DNA of 64,000 bases. It comes from an uncultured virus (IMG/VR IMGVR_UViG_3300046536_000394). Taxonomy: Duplodnaviria > Heunggongvirae > Uroviricota > Caudoviricetes. The notes beneath the pieces are model-generated. The model had not been told where the DNA came from. It saw nothing but the letters and a program-made list of their open reading frames with translations, and searched no databases. Positions 8,224-61,126 of this stretch are shown piece by piece (positions within the stretch are counted from its first letter, which is position 1; each line of letters opens with the position of its first letter). The stretch lies in IMG/VR virus record IMGVR_UViG_3300046536_000394; one strand, 5' to 3'. The translations under genes were made by a program, and so were the position numbers.

Positions 8224-8493
8224 TTAGTTCTGGTTTGCTTCGTTTTCGCCGAAAAAGGCAATGTTGGCGTAAAGCGTGTTCAGCTCCGCCCCGATACCTT
8301 GCGCCTTGAAACGCGAGCCGTCCTTGATGCCTTCCGGAGCTGCGCCCTTGCATGCGGCGGCCAAATGTTCGGAGAGATGCGCCTTGGATGAGCAAACCGC
8401 CTTGAACTGCGAAGGCAAGTCAGCGGCCGGAGCTGCAACGGCGGAGAAGGCGGAAAGAGCGACGAAAGCGGATGAGATGAGAAGAGCGCGCAT
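8224..8493 (-). CDS. hypothetical secreted protein
   Basis: Signal peptide MRALLISSAFVALSAFSAVAAPA; two cysteines; AAAGGAA RBS. Confidence 0.65.
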   Translation of the reverse strand: MRALLISSAFVALSAFSAVAAPAADLPSQFKAVCSSKAHLSEHLAAACKGAAPEGIKDGSRFKAQGIGAELNTLYANIAFFGENEANQN

Positions 8494-8564
8494 AAGAGAT
8501 GTTTCCTTTTCCAGTTTGGCACAATCGCCAGATAAGCCGCGCGTCACTGCGGCTTGCCAAGCGA

Positions 8565-8768
8565 CTATGCATACAAAGGGTTAAAACCGTCTAAAGACCG
8601 GACGAGGGCGGCCATAGCAGCACGCTCGACAAGGCGAGCGGTGCGCGCACGGTCTGTCACTGGCGACGACACGTAGAACGAACCGCCGACGCGGCCGACG
8701 CGCCAATGAACTAGACCGCCGACTTGCTGGACAGAGACGTTCAAGAAAGACTGGAGAAAAGAGAGCAT
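8565..8768 (-). CDS. hypothetical protein, first gene of the leftward early cluster
   Basis: MLSFLQSFLNVSVQQVGGLVHWRVGRVGGSFY after AAAGGAA RBS. Confidence 0.55.
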   Translation of the reverse strand: MLSFLQSFLNVSVQQVGGLVHWRVGRVGGSFYVSSPVTDRARTARLVERAAMAALVRSLDGFNPLYA

Positions 8769-8819
8769 GGAGGCGTTTCCTTTTAAGACCGACTCACAAG
8801 CGAGCCGCGTTGCCTGAAG

Positions 8820-8855
8820 AGAAATGTATACTTTTCTGCGGGAATGCCAAGGGGG
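8820..8855 (-). promoter_or_regulatory. putative leftward early promoter/operator
   Basis: Minus strand TTGGCA...CAGAAAAGTATACAT; 14/15 identical to the element upstream of the ProQ/FinO gene. Confidence 0.5.
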
Positions 8856-9494
8856 TGAAGTGACAAAATGTATAGGTCTATGCACTCCGGCGAAAAGAGT
8901 AATGAAATCAAGCGAAATGCGACGGCCGACTTTTCCGATACATGATGCCGGAAAGACCACGAAACGCGCCCTTGGCCCGCTATGGGCGAAACAACGCCTA
9001 TCCCTGATAAAGCGACGCTCGCCGACTGGACAGACGAGACCGCGCTCGCCGACGCGACTTGCTGCGCTCCGATACTCCGGCAATACGTCCACGTGGATGT
9101 CGCTCGCCGACTCGGCCGCCACGGATACCGGAAAGCGAATAGCCCTATAGGCGTATATGACTAGGCCACGTGTCCACACGAGCCAATGCACGCTGACTCG
9201 CTGCGCCCTTTGACGTCGCCCCGATGAAACGGCAATACGGCATGCACAAACGGATATGATGGCGACACATGACAAGGGGACAGACAAGCGTTGCGCTTGC
9301 GTCGACCCGATCGGCCACGAACCCATATCCACCCTACCCCATAGCCCATATCGGCCATGACCCTTGATGCCGCTCGACATGATCTCGTGTCATAGCGCCT
9401 CGCTGGCGCGCATGTGCCATCGGCGGCCATCAACACCTATGACAGTGCCACGCACGCCGCCAGCGACGCGCTATGGGCACGAAAAGGCGCATTA

Positions 9495-12569: not shown

Positions 12570-12809
12570 TTAGATGCCGAGATCGGTCCGGAGAACGCTG
12601 TTGACCTTTGAGGTCCAGCCTTCTCCGTTGATGCTCTTCAACATGAAGACGACGTCCTGATCGAGGCGCAAACTAACAAGTTTCTTCGGTGATTTCAGAT
12701 CGCCGGTCCCGACGGCAGCTTTGAGCGCATTGATCTGCGCCTTCGTCGGCTTCTTCACCTTCGCCTGCTTCGTGCGTTTCGCTGGAGCGATTTCCTTAAA
12801 CCGGATCAT
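12570..12809 (-). CDS. BrnA-type antitoxin (ribbon-helix-helix), orphan
   Basis: PKKLVSLRLDQDVVFMLKSINGEGWTSKVNSVLR matches the BrnA C-terminal consensus. Confidence 0.8.
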   Translation of the reverse strand: MIRFKEIAPAKRTKQAKVKKPTKAQINALKAAVGTGDLKSPKKLVSLRLDQDVVFMLKSINGEGWTSKVNSVLRTDLGI

Positions 12810-56489: not shown

Positions 56490-56779
56490 TCCGGAAACTC
56501 CGGAGGGGCATCGAACATCGGCGCCCAGGCGTAGAGATCGCGATCGGTTTTGATGCCGGCCCACCAACCCGTCGGGTGCTGCTTCGTCGGTTCCGTCCGA
56601 TACGTCGGGATCCACTTCATCACCCCGGCATCGATGACGGCGCCAAGGATCGGCTCCGACTTGAACGACGTCGTTGTCCGTGTCCCGCCCTTGCCGTCCG
56701 GCCCGGTATGAACCAGCGTCTTGCCTCGAGGCGCGTTCTCGACGTCGTAACGCCACATGAAAATAACTGTCCTGCTCAT
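56486..56779 (-). CDS. hypothetical protein
   Basis: WRYDVENAPRG...AWAPM. Confidence 0.6.
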   Translation of the reverse strand: MSRTVIFMWRYDVENAPRGKTLVHTGPDGKGGTRTTTSFKSEPILGAVIDAGVMKWIPTYRTEPTKQHPTGWWAGIKTDRDLYAWAPMFDAPPEFPE

Positions 56780-57363
56780 AAAACTATCCATCCCCGTTGT
56801 AGTGACAGCGCCACGGCGGCCGTCGTGTTTCTGACGTTGAGCTTGTGGCGGATCGCCGTGTTCAAATGAACCATCGAGCTAGCCGACCTCTTCATGACGC
56901 GCCCGATCTCCGCGTTGGTGTGGCCATGCGCCGCCAGCGAAAGAGCCTCAGTCTCGATGACGTTGAGCGGAGAGCGCATCTTCGCATCTATCCTATCCAA
57001 CGCCTTCGAAACCAACTGGATCGCGTCCAGGATATCGTTGCCGCCGTCTGGTTTTGGAGAGCGAAAGGCGAACCGGAGCTGGCGTGCTGCATCGATCAGC
57101 GTGAGATCCCCAACCGGCGCGACGCGCTCCATCATGTCAAAATCTTCGGCGAGGGCTTCGGCGCATGCCTTCCAGCCGTCACGCCATCCAGCCTGCCGGC
57201 TTTCGTGCTTCGGTATGTTGGCGTAGGATTTCAAGATATCGCGCCATCCTGGCGGAATTGGTGGTTTCGTCATCTCGACTTCCTCGTGAAGTGCATTCGA
57301 TAGCAGCCCTTGGCAAATTTCGATGGCTCGAATGGCTCTCTCACCAATGATGTCCCGGTCCAT
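56776..57363 (-). CDS. protein with C-terminal LuxR-type HTH
   Basis: LNVIETEALSLAAHGHTNAEIG...HLNTAIRHKLNVRNTTAAVA. Confidence 0.85.
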   Translation of the reverse strand: MDRDIIGERAIRAIEICQGLLSNALHEEVEMTKPPIPPGWRDILKSYANIPKHESRQAGWRDGWKACAEALAEDFDMMERVAPVGDLTLIDAARQLRFAFRSPKPDGGNDILDAIQLVSKALDRIDAKMRSPLNVIETEALSLAAHGHTNAEIGRVMKRSASSMVHLNTAIRHKLNVRNTTAAVALSLQRGWIVL

Positions 57364-57463
57364 TGCATTCCATTCTCTTTTGCGAGGGCCCTGGCCGCGT
57401 CGCGTTCTGCATTAGAAGCCACTACGACTTCAGCACGATCGTCGCTTATCCTGAGGCACAGCG

Positions 57464-58144
57464 TCATTTCGCATCGCGCTCGCGGATCCGGCGTTCGAAG
57501 TCGGCGATTCGTGCGTCGTCTTGCGCTTTGCGGCCGCTGGAATGATACCAGTTGTCGCTCATCGAAGCGGCGTATTGGTAGTATTTCAGGCGCTCCAGCT
57601 CTTCCTCGAGCGTCGGCATCGGGACGAAGTCGTCCGGGATCCCCATCTTCGCAGCGGGCACCCCCATGACATCGGCCATGTGCTTGCGGTTCATCTCCGC
57701 CCACTGCTCATAGGAAAGTACAAGTGGATCGGCAGTCGGAGCGCCAAACAATGCCTCGCCGACCTGGACCGGTCCCGCGGGGTCTCGCTTCGGATTAGGA
57801 ATGCGTTTGCCGGCATTGAGGAGCTCGATACACGCCTTGGCGTACTCTGCGGCGTCATCGTCCACGAAGCCGGAGAACATGCCTGCGAGCCCTACCCTGA
57901 CGGCGCCCTTTCGGCATGCCTGGAAATAATGGATGCCGGTGACGTAGTCGGTCATGAAGGCGGAGATGTGCCGATGCGACAGACCCGGGAATTTCTCGCG
58001 GGCATCCTTCAGCAGATCTCTCTTGATACCAATTTTCAGGGGACGCTTTGCAAGCCCTGGGGCGACGAAGCAATTCGGATACTCGTGCACCATAGCGGTG
58101 CGGAGCTGGTTCATTTCCAGCTTAGAAACCCGTTTGCGGGACAT
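57464..58144 (-). CDS. ProQ/FinO-domain RNA chaperone
   Basis: EYPNCF...RPLKIGIKRDL...YVTGIHY...GAVRVGLAG...V....AEYA is the FinO-domain signature; start MSRK after GGAG RBS. Confidence 0.88.
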   Translation of the reverse strand: MSRKRVSKLEMNQLRTAMVHEYPNCFVAPGLAKRPLKIGIKRDLLKDAREKFPGLSHRHISAFMTDYVTGIHYFQACRKGAVRVGLAGMFSGFVDDDAAEYAKACIELLNAGKRIPNPKRDPAGPVQVGEALFGAPTADPLVLSYEQWAEMNRKHMADVMGVPAAKMGIPDDFVPMPTLEEELERLKYYQYAASMSDNWYHSSGRKAQDDARIADFERRIRERDAK

Positions 58145-58169
58145 TGATTCCATCTCCAAGGAACGATGG

Positions 58170-58215
58170 ATTATGTATACCTTTCTGATTAGAAAGCGCA
58201 ATAGGTATACGAATA
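58170..58215 (-). promoter_or_regulatory. putative leftward promoter with GTATAC boxes
   Basis: Minus strand TTGCGC-N16-TATACA in AT-rich DNA; two GTATAC palindromes. Confidence 0.55.
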
Positions 58216-58259
58216 AAAATATACAATTTTATCGACCTGGGATTAATCCCTATTGACGA

Positions 58260-58835
58260 GGGTGCGTCTAAGCCCGAAAAGAAAAAGCCCACGGAGGGAA
58301 AAGATCCGACCGTGGGCTCTGTGAGCAAAAACTGCCTGCCAAGACAATTGACGAGATTTATAAGGGAAAATCCCTGATCGTTCAATAGTGAAGCGGCTCA
58401 CAGAGGCTTAAAAGCCCGGAAATGATGGGTCCGCTCGGTGGTTCCCGCCATTGTTTTGAAGCTTTGAGGCTTGAGTGACGCGGTTTCCAAGTGATTCGCC
58501 CGCGCTGCCGATCTTTTCCGGACCATGAATTGCTTTGCGGTGCTGATGCCTGGCTCATCAGACGGAATCGATCAGGCTTAGACCCCCTGCCGGGAACACC
58601 GCTTTTGCAAGGCGCCGGGAAACTCAACCAGATTATACCGAAGCCAAGACACGGCTTTCGCTCGTATTGCCCATAAATGATCGTGACGAGATCGATAAAA
58701 AGACTGGCAATGTTAGACGCAGTAGCGGCTGCGAAATCAAACCGAGGTTGAGATTAGGATGATTCCACGGATGCTTGGTGCTGAAGGGCTGCACCGGAAT
58801 AGACCGCGTCTCGCTGTGTTAGAGACGGTCTAAAA
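58260..58835. ncRNA. putative large structured non-coding RNA (strand uncertain)
   Basis: No credible ORF; several 9-10 bp perfect helices and a 10-bp loop-distal pairing. Confidence 0.55.
58277..58318 (-). terminator. possible intrinsic terminator on the minus strand
   Basis: AGCCCACGG/CCGTGGGCT stem followed on the minus strand by TTTTCTTTT. Confidence 0.5.
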
Positions 58836-58867
58836 TGATACCTGTACCCAATCGATAGAATAATCAT

Positions 58868-58920
58868 AAAAAGGTATACATTCCGCTTGCACCACTAACC
58901 CGGAATACGTATACATTTAT
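58868..58920 (+). promoter_or_regulatory. putative rightward promoter with two GTATACAT boxes
   Basis: TTGCAC-N17-TATACA at 58887-58915, upstream of the cro-like gene. Confidence 0.6.
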
Positions 58921-58947
58921 GTGACGGCTTAATCAGTGAGAGTTAGA

Positions 58948-59190
58948 ATGCGAATCAAACATACCGCTACAGACCTGGGAGATCGGACCGGTGTCGCCGC
59001 TTTGTCAGCGACGCTTTTCCTCAACGAAGTCGCGGAGAAATTGGGGCTTTCGCACATTGCTGTTCGCAAGTGGTCACGCATCCCCAATAAGCATCTCGAT
59101 GCCGTACACGAGATGTCCGATATCCCGCTCCACATCCTCCGGCCTGATCGTTTCGACATCAACGGGCCAATCGAAAAAACCAAATCATAA
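58948..59190 (+). CDS. Cro/YdaS-like HTH regulator
   Basis: EVAEKLGLSHIAVRKWSRIP...IPLHILRPD. Confidence 0.82.
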   Translation: MRIKHTATDLGDRTGVAALSATLFLNEVAEKLGLSHIAVRKWSRIPNKHLDAVHEMSDIPLHILRPDRFDINGPIEKTKS

Positions 59191-59194
59191 AGCT

Positions 59195-59430
59195 TTCCCT
59201 GCAACCGTCTTGACGCTTGGGCAGGGGCGACACCGTGCGGAGAAATTAGGCGACGATCCGGATTAGATACCCGGGAAATGGAGAGGGGCCGGTGGAGAGC
59301 TCACCGGTGCAGGGTTCCCAGGGTAAGCACATTCCCCCTGGGATGGAATTCATAACTCACCAAAATCGTCGCAAGTCGCCCATTTGTAGCACCGCGGGAA
59401 ACCAGAAAATGAAACACTTTTCTCCGATGG
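59195..59430 (+). ncRNA. putative multi-branched structured RNA or leader
   Basis: Nested helices CGGAGAAA/TTTCTCCG and GCGACGAT/ATCGTCGC enclosing three hairpins. Confidence 0.5.
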
Positions 59431-59453
59431 AGATTAAGAAGGGAAGCAATAAA

Positions 59454-60215
59454 ATGGCGAAGAAACCCGCCCCAGGCGCAGGCCACAACGGGACCGGACT
59501 TACCGAAGATCAGGAAAAGGTCTTTGTTGTCGAGCTTCAGAATTTCACGGATGCCGAATCCTCCATGGCGGAGAAAAAGGGTTCGATGTCCGGCATCATG
59601 AAGCGCCTCGAGTCCGCCGGCTTCACCCCGGAACACATCAAGTGGGCGAAGCGTCTGAAGAAAGAAAACGTCGCGTCCATCATCGGCGATCTGAAGATGA
59701 AGATCGGCATCGCGCGCTTGCTCGGCCACGCCGCCGGTCGCCAGCTCGATATCTTCGACGATCGCACCCCGCTCGAGGACGCCGCCTATCTCGAGGGCTT
59801 GTCCGACGGCAAGATGGGCGTCGCCAATGCGAACCCCTACGGCATGGATACCGCAGCCGGCCAGCGTTGGCAGCAGGGCAGCAACGAAGGCCACACGCTC
59901 CGGAACGCTTGGCTGAACGAAGCCATCAATGGCAAGCCTCCTGCAGCCGAAATCATCAAGGGCGACGCCGATGTTGAAGATGAGACCGAAGAAGCTGGCA
60001 ACGAAGCCGAAGCTGTCGCGGCTGTCGAAGTTGTTCAGGAAGCGCCCGCCGTGGCCGATATACCCTTCGCGGATGCCGCTGAAGACGCTGACACCGGCAA
60101 TTTGGGGCGGGGAGATGGTGTCGAGCGCGAAGAGGGCGCCGTTCCGGTGGAAGTAGCGCCGGCCGCCGCATCCGACGATTGGGACAACGAGACCCCGCCG
60201 CCTCGTGCGGCATAA
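59454..60215 (+). CDS. GapR-like N-terminus plus Rmf-like motif and acidic tail
   Basis: GHN...AGFTP...KRLKKE...ARLLG resembles DUF2312/GapR; AYLEG...NPY...W..G..EG resembles the Rmf/CrpP fold. Confidence 0.6.
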   Translation: MAKKPAPGAGHNGTGLTEDQEKVFVVELQNFTDAESSMAEKKGSMSGIMKRLESAGFTPEHIKWAKRLKKENVASIIGDLKMKIGIARLLGHAAGRQLDIFDDRTPLEDAAYLEGLSDGKMGVANANPYGMDTAAGQRWQQGSNEGHTLRNAWLNEAINGKPPAAEIIKGDADVEDETEEAGNEAEAVAAVEVVQEAPAVADIPFADAAEDADTGNLGRGDGVEREEGAVPVEVAPAAASDDWDNETPPPRAA

Positions 60216-60331
60216 GAATTAACCGGGCACCCCAAACGGCCGGTTAGTCAGTGCGTCAGGGGTGGATCTTAACGTCCGCATCGTGAGTCCACCCCTCCGC
60301 TACCCAAATTACCTCCCCTACAAGCGATCAG

Positions 60332-61126
60332 ATGACAAAAGCCATTTTCAAATCGGAAGCGGAGCTTTGCCGCGCCTTCATTTCGCAGCTCCCAAAGGGC
60401 TGGACCGCTTATGCCGAGTCTTGCAATTTCGATATCGTCCTGGCGCATGCCGACGGGACACAGATCGGCATCGAAGCCAAGCTTACCTTGAATGCAAAAG
60501 TCATCCTCCAGGCCGTCGATCGCACCACGAAGTATCGGGAAAAGGGGCCGGATTTCCGCGCCGTGCTTGTTCCGGCCGGGACAGCCGGACACGAGATGAA
60601 GGCAATTGCCAAGCTCCTCGGGCTCACCACGATCGAGATGAAGTCGAAAGAGCTCTATCTCGAGACAAAACGGAAGTACATGGAGAACGACAAGTTCACG
60701 CCGCACCTTCCCCTCGATCCTCGATCCGCATGGCGGGCCAATGATTACTGGATCGACTGCGCGCCGATCGACCGCCTGAAGCTGCCGGAATACGTTCCGG
60801 ATGTCACTGCCGGCGCCTCCGGCCCCTCGCAATTGTCCGAGTGGAAAATCAAGGCGATCAAGATCTGCGTTCTCCTCGAGAAAATTGGTTATGTCACCCC
60901 GATGGATTTTGCCGAAATCGGCATCGACCGCGGCCGCTTCGTCACCATGGGGTGGATCAAAATGAACCCGGAGAAGCGCGGCCACTATCTCCCAGGTTTC
61001 TGCGCCCTGGATCTCCGCCGCGCCCATCCGCGCAATTACGTTGAGATCGAAGCCCATTTCGAAAAGTGGAGGCCGAAAAAGGGCATCCCGCAGACTGTCA
61101 TCACCATTGAAGGGGAAACGGTATGA
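60332..61126 (+). CDS. PD-(D/E)XK-like phage protein
   Basis: AES..FDIVL...QIGIEAKLTLNAKV..QA. Confidence 0.65.
   Translation: MTKAIFKSEAELCRAFISQLPKGWTAYAESCNFDIVLAHADGTQIGIEAKLTLNAKVILQAVDRTTKYREKGPDFRAVLVPAGTAGHEMKAIAKLLGLTTIEMKSKELYLETKRKYMENDKFTPHLPLDPRSAWRANDYWIDCAPIDRLKLPEYVPDVTAGASGPSQLSEWKIKAIKICVLLEKIGYVTPMDFAEIGIDRGRFVTMGWIKMNPEKRGHYLPGFCALDLRRAHPRNYVEIEAHFEKWRPKKGIPQTVITIEGETV

Follow-up and report, generated by a model that had tools for sequence, protein, structure and literature searches.

A structured, terminated RNA with a covarying kissing loop between proQ and a cro-like gene in an uncultured phage

What takes the place of a CI repressor gene in a phage whose switch region appears to hold none? 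The question is raised by a 64,000-nucleotide stretch of DNA from an uncultured tailed virus (IMG/VR record IMGVR_UViG_3300046536_000394; this whole stretch is called the window here), in which a leftward gene for a ProQ/FinO-domain protein and a rightward Cro-like gene are separated by a gap of 803 nt. An earlier reading of the letters alone (the sequence-only reading) had proposed that a large pseudoknotted non-coding RNA (ncRNA) lies in this gap and that, together with the ProQ protein, it may replace protein repression or silence host or phage mRNAs. We show here that the gap holds a structured non-coding RNA gene on the minus strand, running from about position 58845 to 58277 (~570 nt), upstream of proQ on the same strand, and that the RNA is one of a family that occurs in Rhizobiaceae and Brucella, borne by their temperate phages and prophages. 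The large RNA that had been proposed is real; its strand and its terminator, which the proposal had not named, are established below.

Relatives of the RNA were reached through the loci of ProQ homologues. One of these loci (L003; loci carry L numbers throughout) has upstream DNA homologous to that of the window and contains the same 25-mer. A degenerate pattern of this 25-nt core was found in 38 viral contigs, and an alignment of ~290 nt, beginning with a hairpin that carries the conserved loop AGCCUGG and ending with the terminator, could be made for 32 of these loci. The remaining six (L031, L032, L033, L035, L039 and L040) have little in common with the others beyond the core and were kept outside the alignments. 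A covariance model of a 163-position core (R1), trained on 33 sequences, gave 51 matches in 76 sources, 48 of them full length. The members found beyond the training set included Brucella phage BiPBO1 (149.7 bits) and the Rhizobiaceae genome loci L076–L084. R1 did not match any of 22 loci of a second RNA family described below, nor L002, L005 and L006.

The RNA is built of a 5' domain common to a subfamily and a ~300-nt 3' domain common to the whole family. The conserved core of the 3' domain lies at 58405..58567 on the minus strand of the window (cmsearch 112.8 bits, E 7.8e-27, the window being part of the training set). Within it are the hairpin H1 with the conserved loop AGCCAGG (58561->58543), a second hairpin, ARM, with the loop GGAAAAGAUC (58519->58510), and the near-invariant 25-mer UGGCGGGAACCACCGAGCGGACCCA (58450->58426); the conserved loops of the RNA include AGCCUGG and GAGCAGAC. 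Next to the core is a long variable hairpin (I8 in our list of complementarities; 58317..58405, minus strand, arms 58317-58326/58396-58405) closed by CUCUGUGAGC/GCUCACAGAG, and throughout the family a counterpart of it is found, made of different sequences. The 5' domain (58577..58845, minus strand) contains several covarying hairpins shared by a subfamily of 13 sequences; RNAalifold applied to the window and the 12 other subfamily members predicted 31 pairs, 21 of which show compensatory changes. The complementarities noted in the sequence-only reading are all present where it placed them, and the further hairpins that it saw continuing to 58832 do covary and reach ~58845.

We examined covariation in an alignment of 47 distinct rows fitted to the covariance model, since a MAFFT alignment (A5) was too shifted in H1, ARM and a further helix, P3, for column-wise counts. 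Standard pairs were formed in 90.8% of the cells compared to 77.0% in shuffles, and in 22 of the 28 modelled pairs both partners had changed. The covariation score was 0.341 compared to 0.121 in shuffles, a value reached by 0 of 500 shuffled alignments, and it fell to 0.03–0.06 when the partners were slid by 1–3 columns. Outside the model, the stem of the terminator covaries too (CG<->GC in 13 of 33 sequences), as does its inner stem (CGG/CCG<->AGC/GCU in 13 sequences). The relatives thus display compensatory changes beyond both shuffled and slid controls; a test of covariation among related phages had been suggested as a check on the original proposal. By this covariation the region is a structured non-coding RNA.

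The closest comparison tells the same on a smaller scale. The IMG/VR contig L001 is 94.4% identical to the window over 7.7 kb and differs from it at 29 positions in the gap, where three pairs of changes are compensatory. In the terminator stem CACGG/CCGUG becomes CAUGG/CCAUG, and in the 58317-58405 stem ...GAGC/GCUC... becomes ...GAAC/GUUC... (G->A plus C->U), the latter within a patch with 17 differences per 100 nt. The L001 variant was also seen in rhizosphere metagenome contigs.

The strand of the RNA follows from its 3' end and from its wobble pairs. The RNA ends in an intrinsic terminator (58277..58318, minus strand), in which a hairpin (58318->58286; pairing I3 of the complementarity search, 58286-58299/58305-58318) with the arms GCCCACGG...CCGUGGGC is followed by UUUUUCUUUU (58286->58277), at a distance of 133 nt upstream of the proQ start. 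The terminator is canonical on the minus strand only. It was found in 33 of the 33 aligned family members, and its stem has one U.G wobble in L003. A consensus promoter/terminator scan missed this terminator, whose loop is longer than 8 nt, and the scan is uninformative. The model pair 168/173 is a G.U pair on the minus strand in 42 of 47 sequences, and the pair 65/93 is so in 16. Because the terminator exists only on the minus strand and these pairs would be C.A on the plus strand, the RNA shares the minus strand with proQ and lies upstream of that gene, ending before it.

The loop of the terminator hairpin holds the sequence GAUCUUUUCC (58306->58297), which is perfectly complementary to GGAAAAGAUC in the ARM loop (I7, 58297-58306/58510-58519). 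This 10-bp match had been described earlier as a pseudoknot; the pairing is genuine and covaries across relatives. Its upstream partner is itself the loop of a small hairpin, whose stem covaries (CCG/CGG, CCU/AGG, CCA/UGG), which makes the contact a kiss between two loops, that of this hairpin and that of the terminator. In L001 the pair GGAAAAGAUC/GAUCUUUUCC is replaced by the compensatory pair GGGAAAGAUC/GAUCUUUCCC, and elsewhere in the family the kissing sequences read, for example, GAUGAU/AUCAUC, GGUGAU/AUCACC and GGGUUGAUC/GAUCAACCC; the interaction spans 6–10 bp. Among 26 distinct combinations of arm and loop, cognate partners formed a mean of 6.65 contiguous pairs compared to 5.49 for non-cognate partners, and the cognate mean was reached in 0 of 5000 permutations.

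A further helix of the earlier description did not hold up. The pairing GTCTAAGCC/GGCTTAGAC (I6, 58266-58277/58572-58583), which had been taken to close a domain of ~320 nt, was found only in the window and L001, and in a test on 33 family members mean cognate pairing was 5.30 compared to 4.85 for non-cognate arms. The helix is absent from the terminated RNA, because on the minus strand its 3' arm lies past the U-tract of the terminator.

We found no sign of a protein gene in the gap. Its three open reading frames (ORFs; 81, 87 and 61 aa) match no Pfam family, and no reading frame stays open across the conserved core in relatives, on which ground coding potential was rejected. Sixteen proteins encoded upstream of the RNA in relatives, including S24 and helix-turn-helix (HTH) repressors, were used as tblastn queries; the best match on 901 nt had an E value of 0.025, and nothing was found at E<=1e-3 in the whole window. 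On the tblastn result a decayed cI gene was likewise rejected. The absence of a repressor ORF from the switch region, noted in the sequence-only reading, was thereby confirmed, and the decayed cI gene that it had named as a possible finding in homologues left no protein remnant and no conserved frame.

These results bear on the view that there is no RNA gene here, and that the gap is a decayed repressor, an element acting at the DNA level (an origin, a packaging or a recombination site) or a collection of chance complementarities. The GC content of the gap (0.44–0.56, compared to ~0.6 in the flanks) is like that of many regulatory DNA regions, and folding of the single sequence gave modest z values (–1.98 for the minus and –2.73 for the plus strand) that do not tell the strands apart. 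The extensive compensatory changes, the strand-specific G.U pairs and the canonical terminator all speak against this view, as do the missing protein remnant and the missing conserved frame, and we consider it extremely unlikely.

We then asked what surrounds the RNA in other phages. An S24 peptidase domain was found in 24 of the 32 RNA-bearing records (12 of the 17 that are >=90% complete), and all 24 S24 genes lie on the strand of the RNA, 0.4–4.5 kb upstream of it. A tyrosine integrase (E <= 0.001) was present in 20 of the 32 records (10 of the 17). The Pfam matches upstream on the RNA strand were to repressors (S24 or HTH), to Arc-like proteins and to various accessory genes. BiPBO1 has, in this order, the repressor gp68, gp67–gp63, the RNA and the DNA-binding protein gp61, and the RNA is annotated there only as a 44-aa hypothetical protein, gp62. 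The co-oriented S24 genes upstream indicate that the RNA is the tail of the immunity (repressor-side) operon. On the other side, 3' of the terminator, a –35/–10 pair surrounded by inverted repeats that differ from phage to phage was seen in nearly all loci, a block that we infer to be the early-left promoter with its operators. PHROGs and Pfam searches of the genes downstream of the RNA in relatives returned diverse products and no informative function. The window, L001 and L046 have no S24 gene, and in these the RNA comes directly after the divergent cro-like gene. It had been said that the RNA occupies the place of a CI repressor. This description is apt in so far as the S24 gene of 24 of 32 relatives lies upstream on the same strand, and the same relatives contradict the notion that the RNA substitutes for CI.

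The main rival explanation draws on this position. It holds that the element is purely cis-acting, a 3' untranslated region (UTR) and terminator of the immunity operon that keeps the repressor mRNA stable and stops transcription from running on into the early-left genes, with no function in trans. The RNA is always at the 3' end of the repressor-side operon, directly before the early-left promoter and operators, the terminator is present in every aligned member, and in many loci the RNA begins right after the upstream ORF. However, a multi-helix fold of 300–570 nt with a near-invariant 25-mer and conserved loops exceeds the needs of a terminator or stabiliser. The RNA has also been kept in two lineages that have no upstream repressor (window/L001 and L046), and the second RNA family at this site includes members that have no terminator. 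We regard a purely cis-acting element as doubtful, yet well within the range of the possible.

The second structured RNA family (family B, with the core CCUGAAGGCNGGAGCCGGGAUGGGACA; the family of the window's RNA, to which it is unrelated, is family A) occupies the same position, upstream of the early-left promoter/operator block. It was found in 22 viral contigs and two genome loci (L002:3540-3890, L005:1040-1390 and L053–L074, around position 1500). Some family-B members have no terminator of any kind. The presence of two RNA families at one position suggests an exchangeable slot for an 'RNA cassette' in these phages. The RNAs of L055 and L071 end with the terminator module of family A (loop UCGGAUC(A/G)UCCCG), ~250 nt after the family-B core, which suggests that the terminator/kissing-loop hairpin has been swapped modularly between the two families.

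How closely is the RNA tied to ProQ? In every locus of the window's ProQ clade that was inspected with upstream DNA, ProQ lies directly behind a terminated RNA, which is of family A in the window, L001/L048, L046, L037 and L003 and of family B in L002, L005 and L068. Seen from the RNA, ProQ is rare: it was found in 3 of the 32 RNA-bearing records (1 of the 17 that are near-complete), within 1.5 kb of the core in 3 of the 38 loci, and after the RNA in 3 of the 24 family-B loci. The features of the RNA are alike with and without ProQ. ProQ was present in 2 of 8 records that lack S24 compared to 1 of 24 that have it, a difference that is not significant (one-sided Fisher test computed by hand, p ~0.15).

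One could read the two genes as a dedicated pair, in which a cis-encoded chaperone, ProQ, binds the terminator of the RNA and the two together silence phage or host mRNAs. The constant adjacency within the ProQ clade and the slight excess of ProQ in S24-less records lean toward this reading, as does the behaviour of the protein family, since FinO-domain proteins engage terminator hairpins (PMC9977716; PMC9674577). The low co-occurrence leans the other way. The RNA precedes the early-left promoter whatever gene comes next, the genes downstream are diverse, and the RNA does not change where ProQ is missing. We found no overlapping antisense gene and no evident antisense target of the RNA, although no systematic target search was made. 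A dedicated pair is in our opinion unlikely. The adjacency is better described as synteny, because the RNA precedes the early-left promoter in all cases and the gene that comes first behind this promoter is ProQ in some of them. ProQ is an occasional neighbour of the RNA, the first early-left gene in a few phages. The RNA partner specific for ProQ that the sequence-only reading had envisaged is thus not supported. Of its analogy with FinO-domain systems that bind through a terminator, one half stands, in that the RNA does end in an intrinsic terminator beside ProQ, and the other half fails on co-occurrence across relatives.

The flanks of the RNA gene contain candidate promoters and a repeated palindrome. 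A candidate early-left promoter for proQ (58174..58201, minus strand; –35 TTGCGC, 16-nt spacer, –10 TATACA) overlaps one of two palindromic, operator-like GTATAC boxes located there by pattern match (58173-58182 and 58203-58210). At the opposite end of the gene, a candidate promoter for the RNA (58863..58891, minus strand; –35 TGCAAG, 17-nt spacer, –10 TATGAT) would lie back to back with the candidate rightward promoter of cro (58887..58915, plus strand; –35 TTGCAC at 58887-58892, 17-nt spacer, –10 TATACA at 58910-58915). All three promoters were read from the sequence. Two further operator-like boxes were matched on the cro side (58872-58881 and 58907-58916), one GTATAC box lying inside the spacer of the candidate RNA promoter. 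Four boxes in all flank the RNA gene, and the boxes include a 12-nt perfect inverted copy (I2). The pattern GTATACNT has 9 matches in the window compared to 0.79 expected, and 0 of 100 shuffles reached 9. These properties point to operators for a DNA-binding protein regulator. The only GTATAC site outside the switch region (8824-8833) lies within a divergent intergenic region (8396-8981) and may mark another promoter under the same regulator.

The boxes matter for the proposal that the RNA, alone or with ProQ, is itself the immunity determinant and substitutes for CI in this repressor-less phage, in the manner of P4 CI RNA or P1/P7 c4 RNA. Neither the window nor its complete relative has an S24 or HTH repressor or an integrase, and the RNA is found in the repressor's place beside divergent promoters. 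On the other hand, an S24 repressor accompanies the RNA in 24 of 32 relatives, the GTATAC boxes on both promoters suggest a protein regulator, and there is no Rfam match to c4. No conserved complementarity to the early leader was seen in this phage, by inspection only and with no systematic test, and the missing integrase may simply mean a virulent lineage. We consider RNA-based immunity very unlikely; the earlier suggestion that the RNA replaces protein repression is opposed both by the S24 genes kept in most relatives and by the boxes.

We think it probable, with considerable room for error, that the element is a structured, terminated and kissing phage RNA, the last element of an immunity operon, which acts autonomously. 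The RNA would be transcribed from the repressor-side (P_RM-like) promoter, and because of this presumed promoter it would be made in lysogens alongside the repressor. Its fold would be a compact particle that resists nucleases, with the 3' end shielded by the docked hairpin of the terminator, and it would act on its own as a trans-acting regulator or as a protein-binding scaffold, while its terminator may also insulate the early-left operon from read-through. In the lineage of the window, where the repressor and integrase genes are absent, the RNA would be driven directly from the divergent switch region flanked by GTATAC boxes. ProQ, as the first early-left gene, may bind the terminator of the RNA, and the RNA would be independent of the phage ProQ.

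Several points weigh against this account. The exact core pattern, searched as a control for chance, was found in 0 of 401 order-level genomes, and the family is sporadic with a poorly sampled host range. Covariation was counted in an alignment that had been fitted to the model, and such a fit leans towards the structure, an effect that the slid controls mitigate. Helix P3 is ambiguous, as it takes different registers among the subgroups, and for this reason it was kept out of the outer pairs of the model. The kiss may form within one molecule or between two, and both fit the data. The promoter, the 5' end and the expression of the RNA are deduced from the letters; a search of RNA sequencing runs for the region returned none, and the consensus promoter scan reported no minus-strand promoter upstream of the RNA. 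Finally, our findings do not discriminate between an RNA that works in trans and a 3' UTR with terminator that works purely in cis.

A bolder form of the account would make the RNA a new class of large globular phage RNA, expressed from the repressor-side promoter, and an effector of lysogeny or immunity in trans, whose ARM and terminator loops lock the monomer or link multimers head to tail, and which together with ProQ is the chief part of the switch and substitutes for CI in repressor-less, ProQ-bearing lineages. We judge this form to be distinctly improbable.

The RNA is apparently a widespread but uncatalogued phage RNA family. A cmscan of Rfam 15 over window positions 56500-60500, which had been recommended along with the original proposal, returned nothing at the gathering score, the ROOL, GOLLD and c4/CI families included, so that no matching family was identified. 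Among the typical members L014, L015, L019, L023 and L052 there was no Rfam 15 match within the element, the family-B members L002 and L005 had none either, and a cmscan of the ProQ relatives gave nothing at the gathering score. Two matches below gathering, to RT-2 (18.5 bits, E 0.28) and mir-9413, were dismissed as chance. Searches with blastn found no match of the gap in GenBank phages and no match of a typical member in plasmids. We found no description of the RNA family in the literature, subscription journals and supplements lying outside the scope of that search, and a prior description is possible. In host genomes, blastn detected the RNA in 10 of 400 sampled genomes of the family to which an Allorhizobium metagenome-assembled genome (G002) belongs, and R1 detected it in 3 of 151 family genomes, with one copy each. 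At these frequencies the RNA is sporadic and prophage-borne, and is not a core RNA of the host.

The gene to the left of the RNA (57464..58144, minus strand) encodes a 226-aa protein whose residues 11-106 form the FinO domain (Pfam PF04352; E 9.7e-17, 61.4 bits compared to a gathering cut-off of 27), in agreement with the earlier assignment of the first leftward gene. Homologues of this ProQ are rare; four were found in a large protein database, two of them at 38% identity. Protein alignments showed that its C-terminal part is kept in these few homologues, which have in common the motif QYAASMSDNWY... outside the FinO domain (window 57464-57700), with no Pfam match. The ProQ of L037 has 124 aa and does not contain this motif. 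By its likeness to other FinO-domain proteins the phage ProQ may bind terminator hairpins. To the right of the RNA and divergent from it is the Cro-like helix-turn-helix gene (58948..59190, plus strand, 80 aa). Pfam gave weak hints only for its product (P22_Cro, E 0.025; YdaS, E 0.047), which is 41% identical (E 7e-19) to the product of the divergent gene of L046, for which the YdaS/Cro match is stronger (E 3.9e-7).

Among 61 non-structural ORFs of the window, searched with Pfam and PHROGs, there was neither an integrase nor a repressor; RecE/RecT-like genes, DnaN, an MT-A70 methyltransferase and RuvC were found. The nearest complete relative (G001/G430; 66,331 bp with direct terminal repeats) likewise had no match to PF00589 (integrase) or PF00717 (S24). 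This phage lineage, with neither integrase nor S24, may be a virulent offshoot of temperate ancestors. A BrnA-like antitoxin gene was also seen in the window (12573-12809).

Some observations concern the neighbourhood of the RNA in relatives. In both RNA families many loci (among L014–L051 and L053–L074, e.g. L015, L014 and L061) have a conserved leader motif, ACGAAGAAGC...GCCGAUCUGG, inside a hairpin where the early-left transcript would start, ~100–160 nt downstream of its promoter. It is absent from the window and may be a site of antitermination or regulation. In relatives the ARM sequence GAUCGGC could pair with a conserved motif of this leader, GCCGAUC; the GAUC part is, however, a palindrome, and no such leader is present in the window. 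RNase H genes lie divergently beside the RNA in L003 (239-1027) and L030 (1927-2643). Downstream of the RNA locus in L015 (2200-2290) there is a tRNA-like sequence with a weak match to tRNA-Sec (30.1 bits, E 0.017, below gathering).

In bacteria and phages, structured RNAs that reach several hundred nucleotides are uncommon, and every well-supported class of them has led to new biology. Here a family of more than 50 members with strong covariation has a fixed position at the lysis-lysogeny switch, and the loop of its terminator is built into the fold. The constant position predicts that the RNA is expressed in lysogens and that it affects immunity, induction or read-through. The tempting inference of an obligate ProQ-RNA partnership is corrected, ProQ being an occasional neighbour. 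Even so, phage ProQ genes always follow a structured RNA with a terminator, and recognition by FinO domains could be studied in this natural setting.

Four groups of known systems can be compared with this RNA. Like P4 CI RNA and P1/P7 c4 RNA, it is a phage RNA from an immunity region with internal complementary segments. It differs from them in that there is no c4 match in Rfam, most relatives keep a protein repressor, and its complementarity is a structural contact between loops that covaries within the molecule, and not a pairing with target sites. In phage lambda the layout is cI-rexAB-tImm. As with the tail of that operon, the RNA lies 3' of a co-oriented repressor, is terminated and directly precedes an O_L/P_L-like block; unlike it, the cargo is a large structured RNA and not protein genes, and the phage of the window has no repressor gene.

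The sRNAs FinP, RocR and those of the Inc type are about ten times shorter than the window's RNA. The systems FinO-FinP, RocC-RocR and FopA-Inc resemble the present locus in that a FinO-domain gene adjoins an RNA gene ending in a terminator hairpin with a U-tail. In contrast to these systems, the RNA described here is antisense to no adjoining mRNA, no phage ProQ accompanies it in 29 of 32 records, and it and proQ are apparently transcribed as separate units, divided by a promoter/operator block. FinO-domain proteins bind just such a terminator hairpin and U-tail (PMC9977716).

The remaining comparison is with ROOL and GOLLD, from which the window's RNA differs in having no Rfam match to either, in its hosts (phages of Rhizobiaceae and Brucella) and in its fixed position in the immunity region. 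It also ends in its own intrinsic terminator, the loop of which is part of the fold, and multimers are here hypothetical, whereas ROOL and GOLLD are described in a preprint as homo-oligomeric ornate RNAs (bioRxiv 10.1101/2024.12.08.627333). The resemblance lies in the general character of these molecules: all are large multi-helix ncRNAs (~570 nt here) with strong covariation, complementary loops and an unassigned role, borne by phages or prophages. ROOL and GOLLD, too, are associated with prophages.

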